DNA of 63,738 nucleotides, the filler included, from Reclinomonas americana ATCC 50394 (Eukaryota): assembly GCA_048213135.1 (NCBI GenBank). It is 8 parts of 5 records of this genome, joined end to end, with 100 filler letters (N's around TTAATTAATTAA, not from the genome) between each part and the next. Parts side by side here need not be neighbours in the genome. Positions count along the whole stretch, not along the records: positions 1 to 18,169 come from PS015222.1; positions 18,270 to 26,474 come from PS015222.1; positions 26,575 to 38,381 come from PS015222.1; positions 38,482 to 49,142 come from PS015223.1; positions 49,243 to 56,654 come from PS015224.1; positions 56,755 to 60,703 come from PS015224.1; 2 more parts are not named here. One strand, 5' to 3'. Numbering within the stretch: the first letter of the stretch is position 1; the number at the start of each line of letters is the position of its first letter. The notes under the pieces are model-generated. The model was not told where the DNA came from and made no database searches. It worked only from the letters and a program-made list of their open reading frames with translations. Shown piece after piece: positions 70-60,703 of the stretch. The position numbers were made by a program, and so were the translations under genes.

Positions 70-2595
70 ATGTCCGTCAACCCGCCTGGACCTGACGCGC
101 AGTCTGGCAACGAGCCTGCGTTGCGTACTATACACATTGGTGGTCATGTTTCGTATTGCTGTATCCGGTGGGCTGACGTGTTTTGTTGGTCACAGGGCTC
201 TGGTGCGCAGCTTTGTGGTGCAGAATGGCGCCGAGCAGAGCCGCGATTTCGCGGTGTTTGCCGGTGGCCTGACCCGCCGCAACCCGTGGGTGTTTTGCTT
301 CCTGTGCATCATCACCCTCGGCTTCTACGCGTGCATGCGCAAGAAGCAAATTGGAGGATTCCTCGTCACCTCACGCCGTGTCATTCACATGTGAGCATTG
401 CTCGCCATCAATGCATGTATGCGTTATTTTGCCCATTGCTCATTTGTGCCATGGCAGGATTCTGACACTTGACGCCTCCAACAACATTGTCGAGTACGAG
501 CAGACGTCGTTCTTTGTGCGCAACTTTGCTCATGAGACCCACTCTTACACTCAGGTGCGGCACCCTTTGCTCCCTCTCTCTCTCTCCCTCTCCCTCTCCC
601 TCTCGCTCCGTGTCGCTCACTGGTTGTTCACGCAGCCCATTTACACTTGCGGCGACTGGCTCTGCTGCATTCCATGCTGCAACTGCATCTGCTTCTGCCG
701 CACCAAGCCTGTGCCGATGACCGAGGTCGACCTGTACTTCTTCGAGTACCCGAATCTCGAGGCCAAGGTCCGCGGTGGCAACGCCAGCCAGATTTGCATC
801 TCGTGCTGCCTGTGCTGCTGCAAGCCGTGCATTGAGTGCGCCTACAACGTGAGTTTTATTGTTTGTCTTCCCAGTTTTATTCTTCCTCCTCTGCCGGTCT
901 CTCACCTCCCCTCCTCCCCCTTTAACAGTGCTGCAGCAGCGGCGGTGCTCGCGTGCGCAAGAACCGCGCCTGGATGCGCATGGAGGTGGAGCTGCAGACG
1001 GGCATGCGCGACATGACCAACATGCTCGCCGCCATCCTGTACTACCACCCGGCCAAGTACACTCAGCGTGGCGTCAAGTGGGACCCGCAGCGCCCCGAGA
1101 CCCAGAACCACCCGCGCATTCGTGCCGTGGCGCTGGAGAAGACCGAGGACTACACGGTGTTTGACCGCGACCGCGTGGTGCCGCTCGACCCGGCCACCCC
1201 GACCAACCCGATCTCCACCTGGGGCCTCGTCGACGGCGAGCTGGTGTACGACGGCTTTGCCGGGCGCGTCCGCTTCTGCACTTGCACTGTGTGCATCCTG
1301 TCGATCATCACCCTCGGCATCTGGCTGCTCATCACCAAGATCAACTACGACAACTGCGCCAGCATTCGCCGCGAGTACTTCCTCATCACTGATCGCCGCC
1401 TCATCCGCTACACCCTGCACACCACTGGTGCCAAGTCGGTGCCGCGCCTGGTGCCGTCCAACGAGCACGGCGTGGAGGAGTTCTACCTGGAGCTCTCGTC
1501 CTGGGTCATGACCTCGTTCCACACCTACCGCTACTCGGAGGAGTCGAGCTGCATGGCGTGCTGCGGCCACTGCTGCTGCTGCCTGAAGAAGTCGTACTTC
1601 GTCAGCCTGTTCACCGCCTTTGGCAAGATCGTCATTGAGGGTGAGGGCGTGAACCAGACGGTGTCCACGTCCAGCGACAAGGACACTGCGCTGGAGGGCT
1701 TCCTGAAGGGCCTGATGCTGCAGCACACCGAGACGCCGCTGCTCGAGGTGCTTAACCCCGGCGCTCTGGCCATTACCCGCACCGACACGCACCCCTACCT
1801 GGCCGCTGAGGACCTCAAGCGCCCGGGTGACGACGATGACGTGCTGCTGCTCGATGCCAACCCGCAGAACCAGCATGGAGTGGTACGTGGTTGTTTTTTT
1901 GAGGGCGGGGATGCAAAAGGAAGAGTGAGCTAACTTGTTGTTGTTGTTGTGTGCACAGCCGCAAGAGGTGCTGCTGGCTCAGGTGTCTGGCCGCCCGTAC
2001 GGCAACTGCTGCGTGCGCTGCCTGTGCTGCGTGCCGTGCCGCCTGGTCACATGCTGCTGCTGCCCGCGCGAGAAGACGAAGGACCTGTACATCACCACTC
2101 AGCGCCTCATCACCAGCGCCACTGTGCGCACCCCGTGCTGCGGCCTGGTCATGGACAGCAACACCGAGTACTACGCTCTCCGCGTCGTCAAGCGCATCAC
2201 CTTCAACCAGTCGTACTGGTGCAACTGCGTCGGCGCCTGCTCATGCTGCCCCGTCTCGTACCTCGCTGTCGACACGGATCTCGACTTTGAGCACAGCCAC
2301 GAGGGCCACGAGACCTACACCATTGAGAGCATCACCGGTGTTGGCAACCGCGACAAGACCGGCGCCGACCGCAGCGCTGATCTGTCGCTCGAGGACAAGT
2401 TGCGTTTCTCAATCTTTATCCCATCCCTTCTCATCCACAGATACTGACTCTATTTCCGCAAATTCCAGGGGCCGCATTCTGGTCGCCGCGCTCGCCGTCA
2501 TGAACGTCCACGAGGATTGGATCATGCGCAAGCGCATCCTGGAGCACGGTCTGACCGCCCAGGTCGACACGGAGGTCGTGCCGGCTTACGTCTAA
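70..2595 (+). CDS. Multi-exon Cys-rich membrane protein with three repeated hydrophobic-segment + PH-like modules; function unknown
   Basis: Spliced ORF MSVNPPGPDAQ...VVPAYV* with GT-AG introns (e.g. 120-195, 2399-2468). Recurring motifs FLVTSRRVI, YFLITDRRLI and LYITTQRLI each follow a Cys-rich hydrophobic segment. Confidence 0.75.
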
Positions 2596-3036
2596 GCGTG
2601 ACGTCACGATGCTCATGTGCGGCGGTGTGGCATCTTTTCCCCTCGCCTGCCACCGACACGTGCAGTCTCTTTGTGCATCAGTTTTCTCTCCTTTCATTCT
2701 TTACTTCCGGTTGCCCGCGATCTTCCTCAGTTGCATCGTGTTTTATGTGAGCGTGCGTGCGTGCGGATTTATTTTATGAAGACGACGTGCTTTTTGCGTG
2801 CGAGTGAGTGTGAATGTTTGTGGTTTTGTGTGCGTGTGTCGGCAGTCCACTGAACTGATTTTTTCGGCTGCCTCGCGTCACAATCCTTTCTGTTTTCCTT
2901 TCTTGTCTTTTTTGAGAAGGAGAGAACTGTCTGTGTGTGTTTGCACTTATCGTCGTCTGGCCCCCCCCCGTCGCCCCCTCCACTTACTTTGGTATACATG
3001 AAAAGCGTTCCCTTCGACACCATTCGTGCACATTGT

Positions 3037-4076
3037 TCATGAGGGATTCGTCACACGGGGGGTCACACCGAGGTCGTCGACCGCCAAGCCAGAGACCGGT
3101 GGTGCAAATCCGCGCGACGACAGGGGTGGCATGAGAGAGTGCGAACCGACAGTGGCACTGGCAGCACCGCCCGTGCTCGAGGTGGCCATCATGTCGCGCG
3201 CCACGCGGAAGCACAGCATCTCAAACGTAATGTGCGTGCTGGAGCCCAGCTCGGCGCCAATGCGATCCACGGCGTCGAGGATCGGCTCCCACTGCGCGAG
3301 GCGACCGCGCTCCTCGGCCAACTCGCGTAACCGCACCGACAGCGACGCACATGAGGCCGCCATCGATGTGCTCAACAGACGGTCGGCCGACACCCACAAG
3401 TCTGCGAGCGGGAGGTGAGACGCGAGAACGGGAGACGCGAGAAAGCAAGAGCACGACACGGACTGACTCACCCATATCGACAAACCACAAGTAAAACGCG
3501 GCGTACATGTGATCAAAGAGAAACGTGGTCTCCCACACATCGACGCCGCCCGGCTGCATGTGCAGGAACGGTAGGAGATGATCGCGCACATCACTGGGGA
3601 AGTCCGGGGTCAACACGCGCAGCAACTCCACAAACTCAGGCAGTATCAACTGCGACTGCGATTGCGATTGTGATGACGAAGATGATGCACCGGTTTCGTC
3701 CTCAGTCGCCGCTGCTGCTGTCCCAGTCGACTCAGTGGCCGACGCTCCACCATTGTTGCGCGATCGCAACACGGAGAAACGCGCAAACACCTCAAAGAAA
3801 TGCCGACAAAAGGCGCGACGATTGTCGCGCCGCAACACAATGTAGCCGTACTCGCGGTGTATGATGTTGCTGCCAGTGACCACTGTAGCGAAACTGCAAG
3901 CACAGCAGTGAGACAGCCGGGAAAGGAGTGAGTTGTCTCGCACGTGTGCGCAACTAATCGGCAATCTCTCCCAGTGGATTCTCCTCGCGCGTCTCCAGCA
4001 CCGAGGCGACGACATCCTCCAGTAATGCCACCACCCCGTGCTGCTCAAGGTACTCGCGACCGCTCCCTGCTTCCAT
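3037..4076 (-). CDS. CSTPP1: CSTPP1/C11orf49-like (centriolar satellite tubulin polyglutamylase complex regulator)
   Basis: EYLEQHGVVALLEDVV...IADYFATVVTGSNIIHREYGYIV...NRRAF...EFVELLRVLTPDFP resembles recalled C11orf49 motifs. The 3' end is approximate. Confidence 0.7.
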
Positions 4077-4134: not shown

Positions 4135-6060
4135 ATGGCTGACTTGTTGAGCCAAGACGCGGCGGCGGCGGCGGCGGCCATCACCGCTGCCATGGCTGCC
4201 GCGTCGGCCAGCGATTCTGCAAGTGGCGGTGGCGATGCTTCAAGTGCCGCTGCGCAAGACGAGGAAATCCCGCAGGCGGACGACGATTATGATGATGCAG
4301 TTGCGTGTGTGTGTGCGTGTGCTTTAATAAGGGGAGCGAAGCGCAGGGGAGGTGGCGAGAGAGAAAGCGTGTGTGTTTTGTTTGTTGGGGGACATTTCAC
4401 ACTGGCCGTTTTGTTTCTCTTTGCACGAGCCGTGTGGTTTTCGTGCGTGCGTGTATTCCCATCCGTCCCATGCCTACACTGCCTCTCCTCTCCGCGCACG
4501 CCATTGCGTCGCAACTTTGTGTGTCTTGTCTGCGGGAAATGTCACTCCTTATTGTGCCAGCGCCGCTTGCTCACTTTTTGTGTGCGTGCAGGCTGCGAGT
4601 GGCAGTGGTGGCGGCAATGGTGGAGACCGCGTGAGGACACTGTTTGTGTCGGGCCTGCCTCCGGATGCCACGGATCGCGAGATCCACTTGTTGTGCCGCA
4701 CATTGAACGGCTACGAGGGCGGCTCCGTGAGACCCACAAAGAAGGGAGTTGCGTTCTCTTTCCCCTCGTCCTCCTCCTGCTTCTCCTTTGCATTTGCTCA
4801 TGTGGTGGTGTGTAGACGTGTGCGTTTTTGCGGTTCCTGTCGCACGAGCAAGCGTTGGGCGCCATTGAGCATCTGCAGGTTTGCATGTTGTTGTTGTCAG
4901 AGAGTCGCTGTGCATAATGTGTTCGCTGACGGTGTGTGCGTTTTTGATGGCAGGGTGTGGTGTTTGACCCGAATTCATCGCTGCGGTTGCGCGTCGAGGT
5001 GGCCAAGAACGACATGAGAACAACGGTGATGAATCCGAAGCGCGGTCGCGACTTTGAATCGTCGTCGTCCTCCACGGCGTATGGTGTGTTTTGCGTGCTG
5101 TTTTGCTGCTTCTCACCGTCTGCTGCGTCGACTTACCGCTCTGTTGTGTCGATGCAGCCACGTCGTCGAGCAGTGGCTACCACAGTGCGTACTCGAGCGA
5201 TCGGTACGACGAGCCAGAGTACAAGCGACGCAAGCCCATGGGAGCCAGTGTGTACCAGGATCGCAGTTGCGTAACACGTACACTCTCTGCTCTCTCTTCC
5301 CCTTTTCTGTTTCCTCTTCCTCTCTATCCATCTATCCCGCACAGCAATTCTCCAGGCAGCGCCATCACAATACACCATTGTGTCGAAGCGTGTTCATGCA
5401 CTGTGCTAGAGCAAACCAAAAAAAGTGTCCACGCTATCTCGCCAATGAGCCTCTGAGCCATGACCTGTCGAGACGACTGGTTACACTACATTCTTTCCTT
5501 CATCCTCGAACTCCTTTTTTTCTTTTCCTGGTCATCTCTGAACACTTTTGCCATTGCCTCTTCCCTTGTCGTCTCACCCTCTTCGTTGCTGTTGTTGGTT
5601 TGCCCTTGCTAGGTCGCATGTCGGCCTACGGCTCTGGATCCAGCGGGATGGCACCTCCACCCGCCATGCCGTCCATGTCGCACTACGCGGTGCCACAGGC
5701 CGCTGCCCCGCAGATGATGCGCGGCGGTCCAGTGAGCTCCGACTGGTACTCGCCAGCCGAGTCCGACTATTCGGCGGCCGCTGCCATGCACGCCGGTCAC
5801 AGCCAGTACGTGACGGTGAGTGTGTGTTGTGTGTCTAGTGGTTCTGCATTGGTTGATCGCTCCCCTCACATTGCCTGCCCGCCAAGCAGCACCCGGTGCA
5901 GCACGACATTTACGGACAGCAGGCCGCCGCGGCAGCCGCCGTCGCAGCGTCCATGCAACAGCAGCAAGTGCACCACTACCAGCACCAGTCAGTGGGTGCC
6001 CCGAATTCAGTGTCCGCCGCCGCGGCAGCAGCTGCGGCTGCCGCTGGCGGCGCCAAGCGT
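4135..6060 (+). CDS. RRM RNA-binding protein, RBPMS/couch potato/MEC-8-like; 3' end lost in gap
   Basis: Spliced VRTLFVSGLPPDATDREIHLLCRTLNGYEG...GVVFDPNSSLRLRVEVAKN followed by an Ala/Gln low-complexity tail. Confidence 0.8.
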
Positions 6061-7954: not shown

Positions 7955-9162
7955 GGTGGCCGTGGCGTTCCTAATTGGCCTGACCAGCACCAATGTTGAG
8001 TGCCATGCTGCAGACGTGCTCACTCTACCTCTCTGAATTCTCATCGCCGTCTCTGTGCGTCCAGTGGTACTCGAGTTCCGCGCACAATCTGTTGAACTTC
8101 CTGCTGTGGGCCCTCCTCAACACGTCGTGGTTGATCTCCGGTATTCCGATCATTCGAGGCTACTTCAAGTGGGGCCGCACGCGATATTCCACTGTCGACC
8201 ACAGACGGCGTGCGATTGAGCGTGCGTTGTTCCCGTCTGGACGCCTGGAAGAGGTGCTCGCCAATCAAGAATCGAGGTGCGACCCTGCTTCGATGTCGTT
8301 GTCGTGTACACACACCTCATCTTCGTGCTGTGTTCCTTCGCAGAGCACTCTTTCGCCAGTTCCTGGTGCGTCACGACACGTAGTCGCAGTGCGCTGAGTT
8401 GCTGGTTTGTCTCACTTGTTGTTCCCTGACACAGGTCTCCGAATTCAGCGTGGAAAATGTTGCGTTTTTTCCCCTGGTGTTGCTTGTTTGTCACGTCCGG
8501 GCAGACCGACCGTCCATCTCCGCAGTTGTGGTTCCTGGAGCGCTTCGAGGTGTACCACAAGCTGTGCAGGCGATACTCGCAGTCGCATGGCGATGATGTG
8601 GCAGCGCGGATCAAGACGCTGGGTCGGCAGATGTACACTGATTTTGTGAGCGTCAATGCGCTGCACGGCCTCAATTTGGCCATTATGCTGGCGGCACCGG
8701 TGCGGCAGGCCGTGCAAGATCACGGTGACGAAGCCTTCTTGCCTCTGCAGTATCGGGGCTCTGCACAGGCGCCGCGCAGCAGCTTTATCGAAATGTCCTC
8801 GGTGCCGCTGACGGCCGCCGGGCTCGATGCGGACGAGGCCGAGGGCGGCATCGAGACAATCTTTGACGACATTTCGCGATATGCCGTGATGGTCATGCAG
8901 GTGCGTCGGCGGTCGTGACTCTTCGACAAGTTTTTTTGCCCTCGCGTTTTGTACTCACTTGTCTCTTATGTGGCCGTCACACATGCAGCAAGACTCGTTC
9001 TGGTTTGTCTCCCTACCCGTGCTCTCTTTCCCAATATTCTCATTTGCTGACGGCCTGTGTACGCGTGTGTGCAGCCGCTTCCTGGAGTCAGACGACTGGC
9101 GGAAATTCACAAGGGGTAGTTCCGCGCAACTCATCGCCGCCAAGGCTAGTGCATACATATAG
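7955..9162 (+). CDS. Membrane-anchored RGS-domain protein (7TM-RGS-like); 5' part in gap
   Basis: Hydrophobic segments (VAVAFLIGL, NLLNFLLWALLNTSWLISGIPII) precede spliced RALFRQFLVSEFSVENLWFLE...MYTDFV...LNL...IFDD...QDSFCRFLESDDW, an RGS box. Confidence 0.75.
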
Positions 9163-9204: not shown

Positions 9205-12200
9205 CTACTTCATGCGAACATAGCAGCGGACGTCGGTGACAAACTGCACCAACGCTTTCCTAAAGTGATGCTTCATCTCGCTGGTGATGGCGGCCTGCGG
9301 TAGCCTCGAATGTGTTGGCGACGGTGCAGTGGCCACAATCAGCAGGCGACTGAATGCCTGCTCCACGGGTTCTCGGTAGCTGTCGTGCAGCACGTAGCCC
9401 ATCAACTCAGCGGCCAGAGCGCGGAACGAACCCTGGGTGGAGCAGCAGAATGAGAAGAAGAGGAGGAACGCAAGAAGCACAACTGCACATGCGTCGTCGT
9501 GGCAAACCTCGTCGGCAAGCACGAGAGCCAGCATGGCGTCGGCGGCCTGGTCCAACAGATCCGAGTTCACGTCCTCAAACACCAACATGTTGAGCAGCTG
9601 ATGCTGGAAACGCGAGAGTGCCGGTGGCTCCGATTGGAGAAGCAGTGGCACGCCACCATCTGTGAACGAAGGGGGTGTGAGAGACCGAAGCAAAGTGCAT
9701 CGTGCTGTTGCATCCACTCACCGGCTTGGTAGCGCAAGTGGTAGAATACGAGTGCCGCAAGCGCCTCCAGCGCCAGCTGGCACACTTTGCCATTGTGTCT
9801 GTGCGATGTGCTTGTCGGTAAGGTTCCTTTTGCGCACAAGGTGGACAACAGCAGCAGCAGTGCACAACGCAACAATTGGCGAAGACCAAACTCGATGCCA
9901 GACATCACATGCCCGAACATGTCAGCCGGCAACTCGGCAACACGCTCGGGGAACACCGTGGTCAGATAGCGCAAAAAGTGGAAGAACTCCGACGCCAGGT
10001 TGGGGTACTGTTTACGCGTGTGCGCGTGTGTGTGCGAGTCAGCAACAGCAACAAGCGTGGGAAACCGCACGAGCAGCGACAAACCTCGAACAGCTCCGGT
10101 CGCAGCAGTGGCATCAGTGTCGCCAGGCCGAAAAAGACGACATGTGCCACGGTCAGCTCACCCTCGGCCACGGCCTCTGGCGCAGCAGCTAGAATAGAAA
10201 AGCAAGTAATGTCAGCTACGACCGCTGCGTGCGTCTGCTTTTGTTACGCAACGGCCATCCAGCGAGAAATCGAGAAAGTCCTTGTTGAACAAGTGCGTGA
10301 GCATCTTTAGCAGAATGATGAGGTCCGTGATTTGCTCATCGTCTTCTGACTCCACTTGCTCGTGCGACAACCGTGCTGGTGCGGACCGACCTTGAGTAAT
10401 GTGCGCCACAATGAGGCGCGAGAAAGAAAAAGGAAAAGGCCGCAAGAATGAGGCACACTCACTCACCAGTGTTCTGGCGAGAGTACCACTTGAGAACATC
10501 CGTACAAAGTGCATACACCAGCTGCGTGTGCGTGTTGGGCACGAGCACAAACTGCACATAGCGCACGAGATTTAGCCTATCCGAGTCCATGCCGTCGTCA
10601 TTCACCGATGCTGTCGCAGTGACGCACCTGGATGTCGACCATGTCGCACACCAGCTGCATGACCAGCGTCGTCACTGGCGAGTACATGTGGAACACTTCC
10701 AGCAAATGTCGCAGAATGATGAAGAATTCAGTCAGGAACAGGAAGAGTAGCTCGGCCACACTCGAATCCGAGGCCAGTACAGTGCCGCGAAGCATTTCCA
10801 ACAGTGCCTGAATCGTGGACTGCGCGATAAAAGTAAGCTGACATGCAGCGATCGAGTTCTCCCCCCTGCTGTGATTCGCAATCGCACCTGCGTCGCAGGC
10901 GAACTTATAGACTGCGCAAAGTCGTCAGCCGACACCACAGCGACAATCCGTTCCTGCAGGCACAAGGAATAAGTCGAGACGGATGCGCATGCCGTCCGCT
11001 TTACAGACGTAACTCGCAGTGGGGTGAGTATTCTGAGAAACGCCTGCTCACTCTCCTCCCGCCGATCAGGCGACGAGCACACGTGACAGGCGGCCACGAC
11101 AAGCGATCTGCACAACAGCAACAACAACAACAATGCACAACTCAGAGAATGAAACGACGCGTGGCTCGGCAGTCAGTGGTGGCCGAACCTTCGAATGTTC
11201 AGTGGATGACTGGCGAATGTGCCCTCGAAGCCGACATTGGCCAGCGCCACCATCCACCACGAGTCTGCGGTGCGTGTGAGTGAGGCGAGTGTGACAGACT
11301 GCAACTGTGCACGGCCACGCACCCAAGTTGATCATGGTGTTGCCGATGGCTTTCCGCTTGCTCAGCGAGATGAGCAAGTCGCACAACTTTGCGAGTGCGA
11401 GGGACAGTAAGAGCACAGCACGGCCACAAGGAAGCGCGTGACACGGCCGAACCTTGCCACACAGCACGGGCTCGGTGGGCAAACATCGGAAAATCTCATA
11501 GGCCAAATGAAGAACGACTTGCACGACGTGCACGGCACCATCGCACTCGGGACCGTACAGCTCGCCAAGTGTGGGACTGGGGAGGATGTAAGAGAGAGAG
11601 TGTGCGCCAGCGAGCGACGGGGGAGACCGACCAATAGTGCTCGTATTGTGAAATGTCTGGCATGAGGTACGTGGCCGCCCATCGCTCCAGAAACACACAG
11701 AGAACCTCCAACACACGCGGACTGGCCATTACGTGCTGCGTGCCGTGTCAGGGTGAGAACATGCCCGAGAAGTGCATGGTGGCGATGCAAGTCAACAGAA
11801 AAAACCTGCGAGTAGTGCGTCAACAGGTCGGCCACAAGCGATGCAAACTGCACAATGCCATTGGAGATGGCGACCAGCGGATTTCCGTCTGCCGGAGTCT
11901 GTCAACAGTCGCCCCGATGAGTTGGAGCGACGACATGATGGTTGGGAAAGACGGCGAAACACAACTTCGCGAGACATGTCCAGAATCGACCGCGGCACCA
12001 TCGGCGTCTCACCATCGGGCGAGTCCGCCAACACCGCAGTCAGCAGTCGCAAAAGCCAGTAGATGTCCTCCAGCATCTCAATACTGTGTACCGGTCCGTT
12101 CTCTGTTGCCGATGATGAGTCTTGTACTGTCCCAAACAGGACTGCCCCCGAAGGACCAACACACCGAGTTCCACGAGCATTGCTTCGGGTGGGGTTTCCG

Positions 12201-14417
12201 AGTGCGCAACAACAGAAAATGCATGCAAGCGTGCCGACAACAGCTTCCACACGTGTTCCAGGCTGACGTATGGCGAAATACGAGCAAAGGTGGCCACTTG
12301 GTCCAGCTGCGCGACGATACGACGGGGGATGATCAGCAGTGGACACCTCGTACTCTCTTTCCGTAGCACACCCCGCTTGTACCTGTGCGTCGAGAAGCGC
12401 CTGCTCGTCGAAAATCTCCGCGCCCGGATCATCCTCGTCCAGATTCAACTGCAATCGACCCTTGCGCAAACGTGCATCCACGTACGTCTGGAAAATAAAG
12501 GTCGCACATTGCGGCACTGCGGCGTCCACGGGCACATGCGACGTGGCCAACAACTCCACATCGACAGCTGCCGGGGGTGACGAAACAGAGTGAGTGCGCG
12601 TTCGCCCACAATCTCCACACACCCAGCGGCGCCCTCACCGATGAATGCCCAACAGTCCAGCAGCACATCAAAACTCTCCAGCAACCACGTCTGTTCGACG
12701 TCGTCGGCGGGCGGGTGGAGGGTGAAACAGATGAGATCCATCATGAACGACAGCAGTGGCTGGAAGCACGGCAGCTGCGTCAGCTTCTTCAGCGTCAGGT
12801 TTTGCACGCAGCGCAGCAGAATCTGCGACACGTCGAGGAGCTCGGTCGAGCGCAAGTCCTCGTCCAGATCAGCAGGCGCACTGACAGCAATGCAACTCGA
12901 TGAGGCGCAGTGGTTTCGACGGGAAAAAGAAAAAAGTGAGCGCGCAACTGCTGGTACCACTCCATGACGCCCGTCAGCAGCGACGACATGAACTGGAGCT
13001 CGTTGTTGAGGTCCGCAAAGATGCTGCCGCGCAGTGACGCCATCTGCATCATGATCTCACACAGGGTGTGCGAGGTCGTTGGCTCCGCACGGGCGAGCTC
13101 GTGTGCCTGCATCCTTCGTGAGCGAACGGCAAAACAGCAGCAGCAAGCCGAGCAGGCAGCGGACCTTGAGAAACAGAAGCAAGACCGAGTCGTTCGCCAC
13201 CAAGTCGTGCCACGCAGCGCCGGGTTCCACAAACGACGTAGACATCTTGACCTGACCGGAGCCGACCGACGGCGACATGAGTGCACGCAGTGAACTCGAT
13301 TCTGCGTGCGCACAAACGCGTGAATGTGGAGTCGCACAGCTCGGTTTCGCACACAACAACGCTGGAGTCACCTTTGCTCTCCATGAAATCCCACGACAGA
13401 ATGTTGCCGAGCAGCGTTACAGTGTGCGCAAACAAGTGCGCGTCATCCTCTCGCACAGTCCCGTCGACTGCCGAGGTCACCACCTGATGCAACAGTTGCA
13501 ATGCGACGCTAAACGAGCCATGCAAAAAGCTCTCCTGAAACGAGGCGCGTACTGTCGCGTGAAAGTCCCACGACACGCCCATCCGCGACCCCGACACTGA
13601 GCAGAATTCCGTGACCAGTTCCGAGATCAGAATGGTGCCGGCCAGTTTCTGATGGACTCGCACCGACGAGATCAGCGTCGACGCATGCCCCACGTCTGAG
13701 AGAGAGAGAGAGAGACAGGAAAGCTCACCATCTCACTCGTCTCCATCTCCAGCAACGCGCTAATCTGCGAATGCAACACATAGTGCTCCTCGTCGGTCGT
13801 GTCGAGCCAGTCGCGCTTGATCATCAACGCCAACGCACGTGCCGTCATTCGACTGACTGTGCGTTCTCCCACGCTATATACATGCACACACTGATGGTGA
13901 ACGACGATGCGCAATGAGAAGAGACGACAACAACAGCGACGACGCACCGTGGCGCCACATGCACGAGATACGTCATGAGGAACCCGCGCAACTCGGCGCG
14001 AAACTCTCGTGTCAGCAGCGGCCACACACGCATGTACACCTCCGGCATGGCAGAGAGCGCCTGCATGAGCGCATCGGACTCCCTCGAGTGTGCTGCGTGG
14101 GGGCGCACGATCACAATCATCCCCAGCATCATCCTCTCTCAGTCAACGATGATCGCTATCTCACCGACAATGTAATAGAACGCCACCAGGCTGTCGTTAT
14201 CCTTGCGCCACTCCTGCAACGCACTCTGCGCCGAGTGCACCATCGCTGGGTTCTGCACATCCACACATACACGAGCGCGCGCGAAATCAGAGACAAGTCG
14301 CACACAGACATGTGGATCGAAAAAACGGCAACGCACTCGCAGCGATCGACTGGCCGCCTCGAACTCGTGCCGAAACGCATCGAGCTTCTCGTCGAACGGC
14401 GGCCCGCGTTCCTCCAT
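9205..14417 (-). CDS. XPO4: Exportin-4-like karyopherin (many introns)
   Basis: ALALMIKRDWLD, ILISELVTEF, MGVSWDFH, NILSWDF, EDIYWLL..LAD..DGETPMVP, LFNKDFLDFS, QYPNLASEFF. Confidence 0.8.
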
Positions 14418-40684: not shown

Positions 40685-41451
40685 TGTCGTACTAGTTACG
40701 ACGACAACGACGNNNNNNNNNNNNNNNNNNNNNNNNNNNNNNNNNNNNNNNNNNNNNNNNNNNNNNNNNNNNNNNNNNNNNNNNNNNNNNNNNNNNNNNN
40801 NNNNNNNNNNNNNNNNNNNNNNNNNNNNNNNNNNNNNNNNNNNNNNNNNNNNNNNNNNNNNNNNNNNNNNNNNNNNNNNNNNNNNNNNNNNNNNNNNNNN
40901 NNNNNNNNNNNNNNNNNNNNNNNNNNNNNNNNNNNNNNNNNNNNNNNNNNNNNNNNNNNNNNNNNNNNNNNNNNNNNNNNNNNNNNGACGAAACAAGCAG
41001 AGCAAAGCAAAGTAGTGAGTGAGTGAGAGATCACCCTTTGCACGTGACATGTTGTGGTCCAAACGACGCGTGCCCACTTGTGGCAATTCATCCAGGGAGA
41101 TGATTGTGGCACGCGTGTGTACGAAGAGGCAAGTTTCAACTGGCCACTCACTTGTGCACACACGCACACAAAGAGGAAGAGAGGAGAGACGGAGATGTGC
41201 CTAATTATAGTTGACATACTTTGATGTGGGCAAACCCCTCGCAAAAACAACACGCGCACACAGAGAGACAGAGTGCACGGAGGAAGTGACAGACAAGAGT
41301 GGTGGAGGGGAACAGAGAGAGTGGACGAGGAATGGCCGAGATGTTGACGTGGCACACACACACAGAGAAAGTGACAAAGACGCGTGCCCCTCTGGCATTC
41401 TACGCGACACACACAACAAACCTTCTTGCGATCCTTCAATGCGCTCGACAT
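38523..41451 (-). CDS. KPNA: Importin alpha (internal gap)
   Basis: [83 protein letters not shown]. Confidence 0.95.
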
Positions 41452-42073: not shown

Positions 42074-42681
42074 ATGGCGAAGTTGCGTGCGCCTGCTCAT
42101 ATCGCACACGAAGGAAAAGAAAGAGAGAACAGCTGCATGCGTGTTCAAGTGTGGGGGTGTTTGTTTGTGTGTGTGTGTGATCGCGTCATCTCTCTCACCG
42201 CACTCTCTTGTTGTTGTCACGTCGCTCTGTGTGTGCGTGCGTGTGTGCAAGCGTGAGAGACAAAGAGAGAACACGCGCACAATTTGATGTGTGACATGAT
42301 ATGTTTGTGTTTGTTTGGCCCAACTGTCAACTTCTTGTATCACTGACTGCTCTTGCTGTCGCCTTTTCGTGTGTGTTTGGTTGTGTTTTCGTGTGTGTTT
42401 GCAGATACGGCGACGCAGAGTACTGGCAAGATCGGTACAGGAGGGACCCGGAACCCTTTGGTGAGTGCGAGTGTGTGTGTGCGCGGGAGACTGCAAGAAT
42501 AGAACACACTTGGAGTGAGAGAAGAAAGGGGAGGAGAAGAGAGAATAGGGGGCAAGGGAGAGGAAAGAGAGAGAAGAGGAGACAAGGGAGAGGTGGGCTA
42601 CTTGCAATTCCGTACTGTTGTAATCTGCGCGGACTTTTTGCTCTCTTCTCCATCGTTTGTGCTGTCTCCCTTGCTCTTCTC

Positions 42682-42731
<50 letters not shown>

Positions 42732-44153: not shown

Positions 44154-46846
44154 CTATGGGCGGCGTACGCGGTGCAGCACGGGCGAGCCAGCCGGTGCCG
44201 GTCGGTAGTGCTCCCAGTCGAGCAGCAGCGGGTTCTTCAGCTTGCATGCCTGCGCAAAGTCGGCGGGGATCACGCGAGTGAGGGCCTTTTGGAAGGCAGC
44301 AAAGGTGCAGAGGGCCGAGTTGCCGCACGCCGGCAGTGGCAGGTCGCTGCCGCGGTACGTCACGTGCACGTAGAATTGCGAGTCTGTGGATGCACAGATT
44401 GAGAAGAAGGGCGGAGAAAGAGAGCATGGAAGCAAGGAGTGGAGGCAACACAAAGGGCGGAGTGGAAGATGAGAAAAGAAGGGCAAGATGCAGAATACTG
44501 CGAGGCAAAGTTTAGAGAGAACACCAATGAAAGAGCACGCAGTTCACAGCGGAGGCAAACAAGGTGGAGCACAAAGTGCAGAGTGCAAGCTTAAGAGAAA
44601 GCAACAAAAGCAGCATACATACAGGCAACAGGAGAGAGCACGAACGGCAGAGTGAAAGACGAGAAAGAAGAGCGCATGAGGAATAGAGGAGAGACACGCT
44701 GTACGCATCGGAGGCAATTGAGACAGAGCACGAAGAGAGGAGCGCAGGAAAGAAGCGTAAGCACAGGAGAAAGAGCGCGAATGGCGGAGTGGAAGAAGCA
44801 GACAGAATGCATTGAGGCAACGAGGAAAAGCAGAAAGCAGGAAGAGAAAAGTGGAAAATTAGAAAGAGCAACAGGCAGAATGCAGCGAAACAAGGAACAG
44901 AGAACACGAACAGCAAAAAGAGAAATGACTGAAACAACAAGAACTGGCACAACGAGCAGGGCAGAGCCGCTGAGATGCGACAAGCGGCATCCTCTCTCCC
45001 TCCCTTCCTCTTCCCTCTTCCTCACCAGCTGGGTCCTGCAACAGCTCCATGGTCACATCCGACGCGTACGGCGGCCAGATACCGTCGTACGCACCGAGAG
45101 CCACGAGCAGCGGGCCGACCGAAGTGTCGTGTCCCTGCAGGCGTAGTCGGTGAGTCACCGCAGTGTGACCACACGACCAACTGCTACTACTCTCCCCGTT
45201 CACTGCTCACCGAATACAGGCGGAACTTGAACTGCTTCGGATCGCCGCGCATGACGGCCTGCATGTTCTGCAGGAGCTCGGTGTAGAACGGCGACAGTGA
45301 GAAGGAGGTGGAGTTGAACTCGAGCATAGTGAACTCGTTGAAGGCCTTCTCCAGCGCGTTGTACATGTTCTGCGTCACGCCCGGTGGGTACGGCAGGTTG
45401 TGGCAGGTGCGGCACTTGAGGTTGTCGAACGCGATGATGCCCTGGCGAGGCGTTGACTGGGTCAGTAGCTACACACAGTGAGGGTAGTGGAGGAGAGTGG
45501 AGCGGGTGCCTACCTCGAACGGATCGTCTGCAGGTGGGGAACGCAGGGTGAGAAACTGCAAAGGGAGGCTAAGAATCGAGAAGAGGCACTCACCAGTCTG
45601 GAAGATCTTCATGATCTCGAAGGTGTACGGTGCAATCAACTCAAGCAGGCGGGTGCGCGCTGGCGAGCTGTGCAGGAACATTTCTGCGGGTGGTGGTGTC
45701 AGTAGAGGACTGAAGGAAGGCACGTTCTTCCCCACAAAGTCGAGAGGGGCACGGAACTACCTCACACTGAGCAGCAAGGTCATGCAAAACCGCAAGAATA
45801 ATTGAGGCACAACTCACCAGCAGGAACAGAGAGAAGCACGAGTATACATCAGAATGTTTGCAACATGTCACTCACGAGCCACAAGAGACCATACAAAAGC
45901 ACGCCCCCACACTGCTTCTCCGGCACACATGTCGCTCTTCGTCCTTCCCTCCCTCTTCCTCCCACCCACCAACATAGGCCTCGTAGACACGCGGGCACAC
46001 ATTCTGGTTAATGTGCATCGGCTGCAGGATCGCGAGTGAGCACCTATTCTCACACCACCCTCTCTCTCGCGCGCCACGCAACATCCACATCATCGTCGAC
46101 CAAGTGAATCGGAATGAGCGGAATGGCTCCACCGGCGGGGGTCGTCGGCGGATACATGCCCTGCAGGAAGCCCTGCGCGCTGGCCTGCGTACGCGGAATC
46201 GACGTGCTCCGCACATACACCTCACTCATCGACAGTGTCGGCGACAGGAATCCCGTCTGCACATACTGTCGCGCCATGCGCTGCCCGAGCGTCACGTGCT
46301 GCGAGTAGCCGAGACTGGTGAGCTGGCCCGTGCTGCAGTTCCCGTGCAAATGATCAATGCCCTCCAAGTACGCCAGACGGAAGAGACGATCGGGGTGCAG
46401 AGTGACTCCAGCTGCGCCCTGATCGTCCTCGGCCAGCACGCGCGATTCATCACAGAACCACTGCATATGATGGGGGTCAATATGATCACAAAGATGAATG
46501 ATGAATGATATGAATGATGTGAGTGCGCGCAACATCAACGGGATGGGCCTTGATGGGCATGGTGGGAGTGCGATCACCGTGTCGCACAACCACTGACATG
46601 CACGAGAGAGAGTGAGAGAGAGTGAGCATTATTGTGCGCCGTTCTCCGCACACAGTCTCTTGCTTTCTCTCTTTCTGTTTGGCACTCACCTTGCACCTGG
46701 CGCAGCTGCAGATTGGCAGTGTTCACTGGGGAGGCGCGCGTCTCCATGGCCTCCGAGTCATTGATTTGGACACGCGTGGCCGAGGTGGAGAGTGCCACCA
46801 GCAGCACGCACATTGCCACGAGGCACAGCAGGCGACGAGAGACCAT
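44154..46846 (-). CDS. Secreted/lysosomal histidine acid phosphatase
   Basis: Signal peptide MVSRRLLCLVAMCVLL, RHGDRTP, GQLTSLG, VRSTSIPRTQASA, LYSGHDTSV. Confidence 0.88.
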
Positions 46847-49142: not shown

Positions 49143-49242
49143 NNNNNNNNNNNNNNNNNNNNNNNNNNNNNNNNNNNNNNNNNNNNTTAATTAATTAANN
49201 NNNNNNNNNNNNNNNNNNNNNNNNNNNNNNNNNNNNNNNNNN

Positions 49243-49927
49243 CCCTCTCTCTCATCCTCTCACACACACACGCGCGCACCCAATTCGTGTGCCCTTTGCA
49301 CGTGGCCATCGGCGTCTCCATGTTCAGATCCCACAGACGCACAGTCGTATCCCCGGAGCTCGACGCCAGCACCTGCGAGTCCGGCGAAAACGCCACACAC
49401 AGCACCGACTCGGTGTGCCCCGGGAGCGTGGCTGTACACCTGGTGACAGCACGCACTCGAAAGACCGCCTGCGGCTGAAACAGAACCTGCACGACGCTTT
49501 CGCCACTGGCGTCGGCACTGTGGGGCACAACTGCGCATGAGAAGGAGAGAGACTACGCCAAGATGCAAATGCAAGACAGTCGACGGAACCTGCTCGACTT
49601 TTGCAGGGCCTCCAACAGCTGCTTCTCCACCTCAACCTCTGCATCCTTGCCCACAAAGAACGAGTACGGAGTGTCCTCCTCGCTCGACAGCAGCGAATTG
49701 ACCAATTGTCGCAGCTGTGTCACATCCGTGTCGGCACGCAGCTGCAGTGGCGGGCCAGCCACATCGCCTGCGACAGCGCGTGGTCAGAGGCGCGTGGAGC
49801 CCCAAAAGTGGATGCGCAGAGAGAAGAGAGACGAACCTGTGTCACGACTGACCAGCTGCACAAGCAGCTGACGATCGGATGCCTCACTCGACACCACCTC
49901 CGGGACTGCACCAGATGAAGAGGCCAT
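49243..49927 (-). CDS. NLE1: Notchless/Rsa4 ribosome biogenesis WD40 protein, 5' fragment
   Basis: NLE domain QLRQLVNSLL..TPYSFFV, FQPQAVFRVRAVTRC, GHTESVLCVAFSPDSQVLASSSGDTTVRLWD. Confidence 0.92.
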
Positions 49928-54300: not shown

Positions 54301-57300
54301 ATGGGCAACACGGCCACGAGTCAGGCCGTCATTGAGCGCTTCCACCGGCGCCAGCAGGAGCAGCACGCGGCCGCAGCGGCGGCTGCGACTGCCGCCGCCG
54401 TCTCCTCCCCGCCCGCCTCCTCTCACATGGACGTGCAGCTGCAACACATGCGCGAGGACTCGCCACCATCATCCTCGGCCACGCACTCGTCAGTGTTAGA
54501 ACGAGGCCACTCGGATGGACGCATGACAGGCTCCAAGGTACGCAAGAGAGAGAGATGTGTGCTGAGAGAGAGCCGCTGAACATGCATTTCATGCGCGCAG
54601 GGCTCGCTGGCGTCTGCGGTCGGCGGCAGTGGTGCCGGCAGTGGGTTAGGTAGCCTGCGAGGTGTGGATAGGCGTGGATCGCCGACTGGGATGCCGAGCA
54701 GCGCAGGCGGAGCGGGCAACGGATCGAATGCGTCGTCCGCGTTTGGTGGTGGCGGTGGCAGTGGCGCACGGCGGCAGTCGTCCATGGACGTGATTCCCAT
54801 GATCCTCGGTGCCGCACGCCGTGTCAATGCGCATCATCGACAGGTGCGTGACGTCTTTGTGTGTGCGCTGCCGCCGCAAATACACTCATATCATTGCGTG
54901 TTGTAGGTGTCCGCTGGCGTCAACACGTCGGCAATCACGGTGGCCACCAGCAGTGCCGCGTCGTCGATGAACAAGCCGGTGTTGAATGCGGAGCCGGTGT
55001 CGTTTGACGAGGCGGTGCGCATGCTGCACGAGGACGATGATGCGATGTTTGAAGATGATATGGATCCCGTGGAGACGGCGTCGGCGGCGCGTGGCGGACA
55101 GTACCTGCGGCCGTCGGCGGCGGCGGCGGCGCGTGCGAGTCGCGCGTGGCGTCGGGCGAGCGTCACGTTTGAGTTGTGTAATCGGTGCGGGAATGGGCGT
55201 GTGTGGGGTGTGTTGGTCTGACGAGTGGTGTCGCACAGCCTGGAGGATCTGTCGACTGTGGTGAGCGAGGAGATGGAGACGGACGACGGAACACGGTGAG
55301 TGGTGGTGGTGGTGGTGGCGGTGCTTTTCAGTCTGCAGCTCATGTGTGTGCGTCGCGTGCAGAACACCGGGTTCACCGCGCGAGAATCGCGGCATGCTGC
55401 GTCTCGAGGACTTGCGGGTGAAGCTGCCGCCGATTGTGCACGAGCCGGTGCAACCGCGGCCGGTGGTGGTGGCTCCTGTGGACCCAGTTGCGTCGTGCGA
55501 ACCGGGTAGCACCCAGGAGCGAGCGAGCTCACTTTCTTGCGCAGGTGGTCACTGAGGAGATGAAGCAGAACAAGCTGGCGCTGCTGAAGAAGAAGCGCGA
55601 CGCGCTCAAGTTTCGTCTCACTTCCCCCCTCGCCTAGTCCATCTCACTCACTCACACTCGCGCGCGCCACAGGGTCAAGGAGAACAAGGCGGACCCTTCG
55701 GAATCGGCACCCACTGCGACCAGCGCCGCCGCATCGTTCCGTCTCTTTCCCCTCCTCTGTCGCTCGTTACGATCGATTGCTTCTCACTGTTTTTTGGTGT
55801 CGCGCGCAGATCCGCTCCGGGTGAGCTGTCGTTGGCACTGCCAGGCGCAGACGCCAGGTTCGCCGCGTGTATCCTCATAATCTCTCTTCATTTCTCCACT
55901 CTCACACGCTGCGTGTTCGTGCAGAGCCAGTCTGGCCGAGGCGTTTGGCGGTCCTTCCAAGCGCATCAGTTCGCCCATTGCCATGGCCCAGAACATTGTG
56001 CAGCGGCGACAATATGCCGACTCTGACGGCGCGCAGCTTGCCCAGCCATTCTTCCTCTCGGTGCGTGTGTGGTGTTTTCCGCTGTCATGTTTTTTTATTG
56101 CGCGGTAGCTCACCTTTTCTTTCATGTGCACAGCCGCCAAAGCCCGAGGAGGAGGTTGAATACGACAGCGAAGACTACGACCCCGAGGATCAGGTTGGTG
56201 TTGTGTCGGAATTATGTGTGGTTGCGATGATGCTAACGCGCGCCGCGCGCAGACGGGTCGTGAGGAGGACGGTTCCTCCGAGTACGAGATTGTGTACGAG
56301 GAGTACGAGGAGGAAGTGGAAGTCAGCGATGACGGCAGTCTGCGAGCGTCGCCAGCGCGCGATCGTGCATCCCCGCGCTCTCGTGTGCAGCAACAAGTGC
56401 AAGACGAACGTCGTGTGGAGGTGGTGCAAAAGAGTGCACCAGTCTCCGCCGCTGCGCCTGCAGCTGCTGCCGCCATCGCGGTGGAACACACAGACTCTGT
56501 CGAAAACTTCTCGCCCGTGTCATCGGCCGCCGTTCCAAGCTCGCCGGCGTTGTTCATTGACGTGAACGATTCGCCTCCGCGGTCACCTCCACGGCCGCCA
56601 GTGGACAGGCCGCAGGAGGAGTTGCCGCCGTTGCCAGCGTTGACGAGCACGCCGNNNNNNNNNNNNNNNNNNNNNNNNNNNNNNNNNNNNNNNNNNNNTT
56701 AATTAATTAANNNNNNNNNNNNNNNNNNNNNNNNNNNNNNNNNNNNNNNNNNNNCTGGCACCGAGCAGTACTTGGAGCCGCGGCGGCTGCACGGCCGTCA
56801 ACCGAGTTCCGATGTCACGTTTGAGGACCTGCCGGCGCCTCGCATTCCGACCTCGGATAACCGGCCGACGTCGTTGTCGGGCGAAACCTCACACACTGTG
56901 TCGCCGACGATTGAGGTGTGTTTTTCAATCGCTATGATTGTGTTGTTGACTTTGTATGTGTGTCTGTGCCCTCAAAACCTTCCTCGGTGCAGACTCGACG
57001 CCGTGCGGCCTCGGTCGAGATCTCCGACCTGGTACCGGAGGCCTTGCCGACATACATGCCGGACCGCACACCACCGCGCGTGCCGCCCGTGTTCTCGTCA
57101 CCGTCGCCCACCATTAGCATCTTTATCAGCAATCAAGCCAATTCTGTCACTCAAATCTCACCACCGTCGCCACGCGCCGATTCGTCGTCGTCGGAGAGTG
57201 GCGACTCGGCGGGCTCGGAGCGTCTCGCTGCCATTCCCATTGTGGACGTTGCGTGCACTCCACAACCCCCTTCACGCACTGGCTGTTTTTTTCGCCGATG

Positions 57301-58151
57301 CTGATTCTTGCTTTCCTCCACAGACGGTGCACAAGGAGCACGTCTCGTGGGCGACAGTCGCTCTCTCCGACGTCCGCCTCCCGCCCACACTCGTGCAGCA
57401 GCGGAAACCCTGCTTTGACGAACCGGCCGTCATTACGCCGGCGCGGGAGAGTGCCGCCTATGTTGGTGTCGGCCGCGTGTCGCCAAGACGATCGACTCGT
57501 GCCACTCCACTGATGCGCGACCGCTCCAAGAGCCCGCTCGGTCGCGGCGTCAGCCCACCGTCATCGAGCCGCGGTCGCGGATCGCGCAGTCCACGACCGG
57601 CACAGCGCGACATTAGCCCCCCGCTCGCATCGCCGTTCACCTCCACGGCACCCGTGGCCATGCACCCAACTCCAACGTCGGCCATTCGACCAGTGCGGCT
57701 GTCGTTTGGCGACGTGGCCGGTCGTCACCCACGCCACCGACACGTGGACGCTGGACGACCTCCAGAGCGACGCGGTGTCTTGCATGTGACCGCTCGCAGT
57801 GCGGCCGCCACACCAACGCCAACACCATCATCTTTATCTTCGTCTTCGTCGCATCTCGCTCCGATTGCCCACGCTCCACCACAGCCGCCGCGTCGTGACA
57901 GAGGGCAGTCGCTGTCGGCGCGCGCCACCCCAGTGGCCCCGTCGCAGGGCACAGTGCAGCAGCAGCGTCCGGCGGCCGCGTCGCCCGAGAGAGCAGCTGT
58001 GGACGCCGCCAAGCGCCGACACGCAGCGTCGTCAACAGCACCAGCAGCAGCAGCAGTCGCTCCGGCAGCAGCGAGTCGGGGCAGTGCGAAGAGCAATCGG
58101 CCGTCGCCATTTGTTGCCAATTATCGGCCACCAGAGACCGTCAGCCAATGA
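54301..58151 (+). CDS. Large low-complexity Ser/Pro/Arg-rich protein with possible N-myristoylation start (MGNTATS); spans a gap
   Basis: In-frame exon chain with GT-AG introns. No family recognised. Confidence 0.55.
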
Positions 58152-58285
58152 CGTGTCGCTCTTTGTGTTTCTTGTTTCTCAAATTAAAAAAAGCCAACTG
58201 TAAAGACTCCTTCTACGTGTGTGTGTTGTAGTTGTAGTAATATACTTGTCAAATGAGCATAAAAGAGACGGATTCAAGAAAATCG

Positions 58286-60703
58286 TCAACGCAGACCGCC
58301 GTCGGCAAAATGGCATGCGTGATATAAGGTGTGCATCATGTTCACGCTCCCTCTCGGCAGCGCTGGAGTCTCATTTTGACTTTTCGTGCGTTGGAGAATC
58401 TGAGGACAAACGAGTGAGCAAGAGAGGGGCAGAGGGTGGGGCACGGGCACGGCAGGAGACGCACGAGCATCGTCGTCGTTGTGGAGAGAGCGGATGTCGT
58501 GGAGTTCGACTTGCGAGCGACGGAGTGCTACATCGGTGGGGATGGTCGATGACAGCGGCTTGACCTTGATCAAACGCGCCAGGAAACCTGTGACAATTGC
58601 CCGTGAGTACACACACACGACAACTACACACACACTTTCGCACACAGACAACCACGCACCAACTGGAATGCTGAGAGCGGCAATGAAAATTGCGACAATC
58701 CATTGCGTAAACGTGAGCGGTACGGTGGAGGTGGCGTGCTCCGAGCCGAACTGCACAATGAGGAACTGGGCGACCAGAGTGAAGCCCATCACAGCCATAA
58801 ACATGGCGCTCTTGGTGATGTTCTCGAACACGTTCATCTCTGCAGCAGCGACAGCCCGTGTCAGACACGAGCAAACACACACCAAGACGAAAAGTAGACT
58901 CGAGCACGCACCGTCGTTGACCTTGCGTGCGTTGATCTCATTGACCAACTGCAACAACACAAACGTGTTGAAGATGATGGTGTTGAGGATCTTGGCATCG
59001 AGATTGATCTCGCCATTGACGAGTCCGGGGCTGAGACCGAAAATACGGGCACCGCCGTACTCCAGCACAAAGAGCACAATCAGCTGGAACACCGAGTGCA
59101 CGGCAATGTTGCGGTACATGATGGAGGTGATGAGGGCGTCGAAACGGCCGTACGGCTTGCGCTTCAGCAACGATGGGTTCGGGGGTTCCGTGGCCAGAGC
59201 CAGCGCAGCGAACGTGTCCATGATGAGGTTGACCCACAGCAGCCTGCATCGCCAATCGACTGTGAGGACGAGTACCCGAGTTAAGTGGCGAGCAATTAAA
59301 AACGCAACTGAATGGCGGTCAGCGGCAGCGACTCGCGTTGGGCCAGAGCAGAAATCAGCGTCACCACCAGCGCCACCACGTTGACGGTGAGCTGGAACTG
59401 CAGGAACTTGCGAATGTTCTCGTACACCGAGCGGCCCCACAGGACGGCGTTCACAATGGACTTGAAGTTGTCATCCAGAATAACAATGTCAGACGCCTCC
59501 TTCGCCACCTCGGTGCCAGACAGACCCATTGAGAGACCCACATCGGCGGCCTTCAGGGCCGGCGCGTCGTTTGTCCCGTCACCCGTCACCGCAACGACCT
59601 ACAGGTGATCAATCAAATACAAATGAGCACAGACAGGAGAGTACAGACAAAGCAACGCGCACGGTTCAACGCACCTCGCCGAGGTCGTGGAGGCGGTTCA
59701 CGAGCTTCAACTTGTCGACCGGAGTGGAGCGCGCCAACACGGTCAGGCGAGCCAGGGCACGATCGAGTGCCTCGCCCTCGAGGTCGCGGAATTGCTGACC
59801 CTCCATGGCCTCATCATTCGGTCCAAGAATGCCGCACTCGGTGGCGATGGCGCGCGCAGTCTCAATGTCTGTCACGAGCACAGACATCAGCACCATCATA
59901 CCCACCCGGCGAGGAAAATCTACCACATGCGCACGCAACTGTCACCAGTAACCATGCGCACAGTAATGCCGGCCTCCTTGCAGCGGCGAATAGCATCGGT
60001 GACCTCCTTGCGCAGCGGATCCTGAATGCCCACAATCGCAATGAGCGTCATGTCGTCCTCCGGGGCCTGCTCCAAGTCCGAGTACTCGGGGAGCAGTGTC
60101 GGAATGTCGCGGTACGCAATGGACATGGTGCGGAACGCTGTTCGATCACACGCAATGAATGAGCATTTCGACCNNNNNNNNNNNNNNNNNNNNNNNNNNN
60201 NNNNNNNNNNNNNNNNNNNNNNNNNNNNNNNNNNNNNNNNNNNNNNNNNNNNNNNNNNNNNNNNNNNNNNNNNNNNNNNNNNNNNNNNNNNNNNNNNNNN
60301 NNNNNNNNNNNNNNNNNNNNNNNNNNNNNNNNNNNNNGCAACGCACTCTCACGACCCACCACCAAGTCACAAACGCAACAAGCATGAGCCATGGCCGAGA
60401 TCACGGTCTCCTCGAGGTAGTGGCGAGTGCGATCGTCGAGGTTGGCAACTTGACCATTCGGCATCAGGAACTTGGAGCAGCGGGCGAGGATGATCTCCGA
60501 GGCACCCTTCGAGTAGAGGCGGTATCCACCAGTTTCCAACTGCACCAGTGTGCTCATGCGCTTGCGGTCGGACGAGAACGAGTACACTTGCGGCACAGCG
60601 TTGCGGAGGTTGTATGCGCGACGGCAGGCGGCGTAGTCGTAATCCAGCTCTTGCGACAGCAGCAGCAGGGCACACTCGGTCTTGTTGCCTTGGTACTCCT
60701 GCG
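58286..60703 (-). CDS. Plasma-membrane-type Ca2+ P-type ATPase (P2B), 3' part
   Basis: [83 protein letters not shown]. Confidence 0.93.

Follow-up and report, generated by a model that had tools for sequence, protein, structure and literature searches.

How does a cell find the start of an intron when the sequence that should mark it stands one base too far from the cut? The question is raised by a 63,738-base stretch of eukaryotic DNA from Reclinomonas americana (the window, meaning here the whole stretch that was analysed, with 3,479 N among its bases). Its gene density is high, and many short introns interrupt the genes. The main class of their donors (5′ splice sites), called unshifted, has the consensus GTGCGT; in a second class, called shifted, it is GTTGCGT. 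The first-pass annotation had listed 32 shifted donors, all after exonic A, C or T, and had proposed a compensation rule in which the intron's G at +1 takes the place of a missing G at -1, with recognition in one register and cleavage one base upstream. The tests that we ran all favour such a single recognition register with the cut one base upstream, and we regard this reading as supported.

Introns were predicted with a purpose-written dynamic-programming gene finder. Its codon log-odds were trained on the window itself, and it scored codon usage, GT..AG boundaries, intron composition, length, the branch motif and the base at acceptor position -3; the three exon bases preceding the donor were left unscored in every run. 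Run A, in which donors were GT only, gave 133 introns in genes scoring at least 25, of which 118 were 42-150 nucleotides (nt) long. Run B, which also scored donors with a two-component mixture restricted to intron positions +3 to +8, gave 128, with 115 of them in the same length range; these 115 introns underlie the main counts unless stated otherwise. The runs have 89 donors in common, and some predicted introns are surely wrong, especially long ones and those with degenerate donors. In the high-confidence subset, introns are 46-91 nt long and carry a branch motif CT[ACG]A[CT], mostly 13-26 nt upstream of [C]AG.

A metagenome search with an importin-alpha exon returned 54 relative loci, the best 65-70% identical; L001, L002 and L004 are from one organism and L003 from its relative. 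As a replication set these relatives were rejected: in such distant, intron-poor organisms the gene finder predicts long unspliced genes.

Unsupervised expectation-maximisation on the 118 run-A donors demonstrated two motif classes, with components GT-GCGT (59%) and GT-TGCGT (41%). The Bayesian information criterion is lowest for two components (1835.8; one component, 1878.3; three, 1870.2). We defined unshifted donors by G at +5, strict shifted donors as GTTG[CTA]G, loose shifted donors as GTT[ACT][ACT]G, and degenerate donors by no G at +5 or +6; among the 115 donors these number 72, 22, 6 and 15, respectively, which puts the strict shifted class at about 19% of donors (22/115). Its motif is found at 157 of the 8,143 GT sites on both strands (1.9%) and at 19 of the 118 run-A donors (p=1.7e-12). 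Of the 33 donors with G at +6 but not at +5, 28 have T at +3, whereas T makes up 33% of intron bases overall. The intron-side block is also tighter in the shifted class, with T at +7 in 86% of donors, compared with T at +6 in 61% of unshifted ones.

Median intron length is 68 nt in the shifted and 68.5 nt in the unshifted class, intron G+C is 0.56 and 0.55, a branch motif is present in 91% and 85%, and the acceptor is CAG in 20/22 and 61/72, respectively. The base with which the following exon begins showed no class difference. When all 115 introns were compared with one another by blastn, only 12 matches of 15-16 nt emerged; therefore, the shifted class is not a repeated, introner-like intron family. 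U12-type introns have a rigid /RTATCCTT donor and a TCCTTAAC branch site. A U12-type identity was rejected: the donors are GTTGCGT, and these introns share their branch motif and acceptor with the unshifted ones.

The class of a donor goes with the last base of its exon (-1), as these counts demonstrate:

Strict shifted (n=22): A 14, T 5, C 3, G 0
Unshifted (n=72): G 56, T 9, C 4, A 3
Degenerate (n=15): G 13, C 2
Loose shifted (n=6): G 2, A 2, T 1, C 1

A contingency test of the -1 base against the register of the downstream G (+5 or +6), run on the predicted introns of the window, gives a strong association: G precedes 0/22 strict shifted and 56/72 unshifted donors (Fisher p=1.4e-11), which bears out the claim that shifted donors occur almost only after exons not ending in G. 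The same contrast appears in phases 0, 1 and 2 (0/11 vs 30/36, 0/3 vs 16/22 and 0/8 vs 10/14; p=7e-7, 0.037 and 0.0017) and in run A (0/19 vs 44/58, p=1.6e-9). Seen from the exon, the strict shifted share is 0/71 after G, 14/19 after A, 5/15 after T and 3/10 after C. Donors after an exonic G are thus unshifted or degenerate, as had been proposed, with two loose shifted ones besides. The 13 introns outside 42-150 nt hold three further strict shifted donors, after A, C and T, bringing those called to 25 (A 15, T 6, C 4, G 0). Against the 32 donors listed earlier as following only A, C or T, the present counts are these 25 and the six loose donors, plus an uncalled candidate at position 120 (+), also after a non-G base; two of the six loose donors follow G.

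It is worth stressing that the size of this contrast arises mainly because unshifted donors strongly favour G. At GTG[CA]G sites, G stands at -1 in 36/49 called and 140/603 uncalled cases. Before exonic GTTG the background of G is already 12%, and against it 0/22 gives p=0.06; comparing called with uncalled occurrences of the strict shifted motif (0/25 vs 26/132) gives p=0.015. The lack of G beyond background in shifted donors is thus marginal. The firm positive signal at these sites is the preference for A at -1, more than the absence of G: A is found in 14/22 shifted donors, against 19% before exonic GTTG (about threefold, p=5e-6), and in 15/25 called versus 19/132 uncalled occurrences of the strict motif (p=4.6e-6). 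In phase 0, it ends the codon in 6/11 shifted donors against 9% before exonic GT, which points to selection on the last exon base.

The exceptions are few. In the raw sequence, GTTGCGT is preceded by G twice, at 52643 and 52964 (+), outside predicted genes, and neither site has a branch motif plus YAG within 42-150 nt downstream. Two donors of the loose class follow G (here and below, exon bases are in lower case and a slash marks the cut):

49518..49589, minus strand: cag/GTTCCGTC, G at -1 and G at +6
36324..36382, minus strand: aag/GTTTTGTT, recovered here as a loose-class donor and already flagged as a possible exception in the first-pass annotation

The former may be an ordinary exon-heavy donor, CAG/GT alone giving five canonical pairs, and in both the AG/GT exon side alone could carry a canonical site. 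The degenerate donors, with A at -2 in 11/15 and G at -1 in 13/15, appear to rest on the exon side alone; examples are aag/GTTCTTCA at 16194 (-) and cag/GTTTTTTC at 11805 (-). Two predicted donors, gcg/GTGGCGGA at 15249 (+) and aag/GTGGCGTC at 18463 (+), carry G at both -1 and +3, and their GCG comes one base late. These two could be true bulge-type sites, unlike the GTTGCGT class.

The exon side of the shifted donors demonstrates a displaced profile. C at -2 (0.40) and A at -1 (0.60), together with the G of the intron, spell CAG. For the three exon bases of these donors, the unshifted profile moved by one gives a log-likelihood of -125.9 bits, against -180.2 bits for the same profile unmoved and -136.6 bits for coding composition. 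This displacement by one base fits a shifted register of U1 small nuclear RNA (snRNA), with A facing U10 and G+1 facing C9, and is the opposite of what a bulged U would predict, namely -1 facing C9 and G preferred. The suggestion that the intron's own G takes the place of the missing -1 G is thereby supported. From the compensation rule, recognition in one register with the cut one base upstream survives, but the wording of a missing G does not: G is unneeded, A is preferred, and G, though absent, is not demonstrably avoided (p=0.06 and 0.015 above).

The position of the cut was determined at 4 of the 25 called donors by searching the flanking exons singly against the sequences of solved structures. 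Relative to the solved homologues, 4/4 junctions leave exactly one residue for the split codon, and therefore the cut falls immediately before GT at these four:

40250..40323, minus strand: agc/GTTGCGTC, importin-alpha; exons match 4bqk_A to 65 and from 67
38964..39035, minus strand: tga/GTTGCGTG, importin-alpha; exons match 4bqk_A to 335 and from 337
59869..59939, minus strand: aca/GTTGCGTG, calcium ATPase; splits the N codon of TGDN, 9gsd_A 688/690 and 6a69_A 710/712
59244..59308, minus strand: tca/GTTGCGTT, calcium ATPase; exons match 8qmp_A to 853 and from 855

Cleavage before GT at the TGDN junction had been claimed before, and colinearity with 9gsd_A and 6a69_A agrees with it. An example of an unshifted donor in the same calcium-ATPase gene is

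59599..59674, minus strand: gag/GTGCGTTG

The other called introns with strict shifted donors are

2399..2468, plus strand: caa/GTTGCGTT, 70 nt; also chosen without a donor model
4300..4591, plus strand: gca/GTTGCGTG, 292 nt, outside the 42-150 nt set
4748..4815, plus strand: gga/GTTGCGTT, 68 nt
5266..5344, plus strand: gca/GTTGCGTA, 79 nt
8459..8504, plus strand: aat/GTTGCGTT, 46 nt
55173..55238, plus strand: tga/GTTGTGTA, 66 nt
55487..55544, plus strand: cca/GTTGCGTC, 58 nt
56200..56252, plus strand: ggt/GTTGTGTC, 53 nt; less certain, as run A (GT only) preferred cag/GTTGGTGT at 56194
57248..57323, plus strand: gac/GTTGCGTG, 76 nt
46022..46082, minus strand: gat/GTTGCGTG, 61 nt
44384..44953, minus strand: ctc/GTTGTGCC, 570 nt; doubtful long intron with no branch motif, left out of the main counts by length
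41147..41417, minus strand: ttt/GTTGTGTG, 271 nt; doubtful long intron, left out by length
32732..32806, minus strand: gca/GTTGCGTT
27647..27732, minus strand: aga/GTTGAGTG
19879..19947, minus strand: act/GTTGCGTG
13252..13357, minus strand: gtt/GTTGTGTG, 106 nt; less certain, absent from the GT-only set
12881..12948, minus strand: gca/GTTGCGCG
11899..11965, minus strand: gaa/GTTGTGTT
10189..10252, minus strand: gcc/GTTGCGTA
9433..9483, minus strand: gca/GTTGTGCT
3894..3954, minus strand: tta/GTTGCGCA

One further candidate lies at the 5′ end of a gene, in frame with an ATG at 70:

120..195, plus strand: tgc/GTTGCGTA, 76 nt

Here the gene finder chose cat/GTTTCGTA at 148 instead; neither donor follows G. 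The gene (5-2595, +), whose 5′ end is ambiguous for this reason (donor 120 or 148), has a third-position G+C of 0.88 in its longest exon, and its predicted protein of about 700 residues contains many CC and CxxC clusters.

Judging from the sequence, U1 probably pairs one base downstream of the cut at shifted donors, so that one footprint serves two cut placements. The role of U1 as reader, the standard form of its 5′ end and the way in which U6 accommodates the additional nucleotide are points that we infer. The footprint would be roughly (C)AG-N-UGCGU. With G as N it would give the ordinary donor, AG/GUGCGU, cut after AG. With U as N, at about one fifth of donors, it would give A/GUUGCGU, in which the sole GU lies one base upstream and the cut would go there. 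The exon of a shifted donor would then provide (C)A only, and G+1 of the intron would fill the slot of the exon-final G opposite C9 of U1; U+2 would be mismatched opposite C8, and U+3 and GCGU would pair like the normal +2 to +6. U1 would sit one nucleotide downstream of its usual place, and U6, U5 and Prp8 would presumably settle the cut before the sole GU at a later stage. Shifted donors would not be found after an exonic G because the unshifted form is better there by one G:C pair, and would dominate after an exonic A because they gain A:U10 and G:C9. According to PMC11162779, the cut always precedes the +5G:U6 pair by 5 nt, apart from a single human case for which 4 nt is proposed; if G+6 pairs with U6 at shifted donors, this distance would be six.

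Pairing was counted as Watson-Crick plus G-U pairs to AUACUUACCUG, the human U1 5′ end (PMC4856993), which may not be that of the host. The 22 shifted donors form a mean of 4.09 pairs when aligned canonically, a figure that rises to 6.91 with the shift and to 6.55 with the bulge; unshifted donors average 7.22 in the canonical register. Such counts alone do not decide the register, because shift and bulge both restore normal complementarity.

Several observations weigh against displaced pairing of U1. The pair counts barely separate it from the bulged U, and the standard U1 5′ end is an assumption for this host. Nearest-neighbour duplex energies with that U1 are weak in both classes and do not recover the shifted helix (gcA/GUUGCGU -1.3 kcal/mol, cAG/GUGCGU -7.8), although they are uninformative, because C at +4 breaks the helix in both. 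The equivalence of the shifted -1 with the unshifted -2 position is inexact: the former has less G (0/22 vs 16/72, p=0.019) and more A (14/22 vs 25/72, p=0.025). Ordinary exon/intron compensation among unshifted donors is undetectable in this sample (p=0.58). Finally, the introns are predictions from one 64-kb scaffold, with independent support at four junctions only. With regard to the excess of A, the share at the shifted -1 matches that at -2 of the exon-dependent degenerate donors (14/22 and 11/15, p=0.72). A site lacking the C8 pair is expected to lean on A:U10, and the tighter intron block of the shifted class is in line with this.

Among the other explanations, a bulged-U register would keep G+1:C8 and U+2:A7 as usual, bulge out one U of +2/+3 and let GCGU pair, with the -1 pattern incidental. 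PMC4856993 (Table 3) assigns 68 human 5′ splice sites to this register, it forms nearly as many pairs as the shift, and T at +3, which both registers require, suits its UU (a UU ensured by our class definition). It would, however, set the -1 base opposite C9 and so predict G there, as in 56/72 unshifted donors, where we found G in 0/22 and A in 14/22. Moreover, the unmoved exon profile is 54 bits worse than the one moved by one, and G/GTTGCGT, which would make a strong bulge site, is not found at any called donor; we therefore consider the bulge unlikely. Rather doubtful, in our view, is a second U1, or a single U1 with a 5′ end other than the standard ACUUACCUG, for example with A opposite U+2 and mismatch-free pairing with AGUUGCGU, which would give the shifted class its own reader. 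The weak duplex energies with standard U1 and the great uniformity of the shifted motif would suit such a variant, and in Entamoeba and Mastigamoeba the 5′ end of U1 has evolved together with atypical donors (preprint 10.1101/2022.06.08.495308). That preprint, however, describes two lineages with C at +4, Thecamonas and Micromonas, whose U1 is standard, and an exon side of C, A and then G implies C9-U10-G11 one base downstream, where even a variant would still be shifted. No snRNA gene was found in the window with Rfam in gathering and E-value modes.

It is also conceivable, though very unlikely, that recognition is not centred on U1: U6 (ACAGAGA) moved by one, or a protein, would read G at +6 and T at +7, U5 loop 1 or Prp8 would read A at -1, and U1 would be secondary in short, intron-defined introns. 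The introns are indeed very short with strong branch signals, and for human STAT3 a one-base displacement of U6 the other way has been proposed (PMC11162779). This leaves unexplained, however, why CAG is re-created with the intron's own G and why the class is absent after exonic G. That the pattern is an artefact or chance, with shifted donors misplaced by the gene finder or produced by codon phase or composition, is extremely improbable. In its favour are the purely predicted introns, the incomplete overlap of the two runs (89 donors of 115 and 118) and the low background of G before exonic GTTG (12%). Against it, the exon side was unscored, 17/22 strict shifted donors were also picked by GT only, the association holds within each phase, A at -1 is about threefold over background, and 4/4 junctions agree with solved structures.

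For displaced pairing of U1, a wider proposal is possible, if rather less than probable: a genome-wide two-register code in which about one fifth of all introns, and the majority of those after an exon-final A, are read by U1 displaced by one nucleotide. A dedicated U1 variant, or U6 pairing moved opposite to that of STAT3, may serve such introns.

The G+C content of the window is 58-59% (N excluded). Seven identical linkers of 100 bases, N44-TTAATTAATTAA-N44, contain stops in all six frames:

18170-18269: 100-base linker
26475-26574: 100-base linker
38382-38481: 100-base linker
49143-49242: 100-base linker
56655-56754: 100-base linker
60704-60803: 100-base linker
62601-62700: 100-base linker

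Because of them the stretch is a chain of joined contigs, which is without effect on the per-intron analysis. Genes are cut at the linkers; for example, cytochrome b5/reductase-like pieces flank 18170-18269. The only Rfam family present in the window is nuclear RNase P:

51272-51688, minus strand: nuclear RNase P RNA, Rfam RF00009, 58.7 bits, full model length

On both strands of 42533-42725, several plant microRNA precursor families match below threshold; this is probably a long hairpin or an inverted repeat, located where a methyltransferase-like gene region starts.

If the rule were true genome-wide, a register deemed a rare human curiosity would be one of the principal means of recognising introns and would follow a clean sequence rule. 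The organism would also offer a natural system that routinely separates the position of U1 from the site of cleavage. Its many natural substrates would allow one to ask what fixes the cut when U1 is off register, and whether one more nucleotide between GU and the pairing block can be accommodated by U6. Selection on the last exon base would be visible in the phase-0 codons ending in A. For annotation, a single donor weight matrix would blur two sharp motifs and mis-score about one fifth of the donors of this organism.

Dependencies between the exon and intron sides of 5′ splice sites, such as that of G at -1 with G at +5, are classically a matter of compensation, a weak exon side being offset by a strong intron side. 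The donors described here differ in that the whole intron-side block has moved by one base and is not strengthened in place. A shifted (+1) U1 register was shown in human cells by Roca and Krainer in 2009 (via PMC4856993 and PMC11162779), and the present case resembles it: U1 would sit one nucleotide downstream, with G+1 in the slot of the exonic -1 G, U+2 mismatched and the cut before GU. Its marks are found here, namely poor canonical and good shifted pairing (to the assumed U1), a displaced exon side and cleavage before GU; the model oligonucleotide of PMC4856993, Table 2 (ACA/GUCAAGUAUA), even has A at -1, as here. The pairing block is UGCGU here and AAGU in the human register, and only one position is mismatched here, unlike at human shifted sites, because +3 is U. 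The two also differ in frequency. All validated non-canonical registers together account for 1.5% of human 5′ splice sites (PMC4856993), whereas the shifted class here, known from sequence alone, comprises 22/115 donors and 14/19 of those after an exonic A.

With the bulge +2/+3 register (Roca et al. 2012; Tan et al. 2016; PMC4856993, Table 3), these donors share the look of a U inserted after GU. That register keeps the preference for G at -1 and A at -2, unlike the shifted donors here (0/22 G).

Donors of the AG/GTGCGT type are known from Mamiellophyceae, including Micromonas and Ostreococcus (PMC3879977, PMC2483917), and Thecamonas and Micromonas are reported to favour C at +4 while having a standard U1 (preprint 10.1101/2022.06.08.495308). 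Our unshifted class has the same GTGCGT consensus as the former; the branch distance is mostly 13-26 nt here and 43-52 nt in Micromonas. A GTTGCGT class is not described in the passages of these three sources on Mamiellophyceae and Thecamonas, and literature searches on shifted registers and the GTGCGT consensus, not extending to the supplementary donor logos of Micromonas, revealed no major one; a search for the motif itself brought up unrelated papers only. In this window, a known register would be in use at about 19% of donors (22/115), obeying a clean rule on the last exon base.

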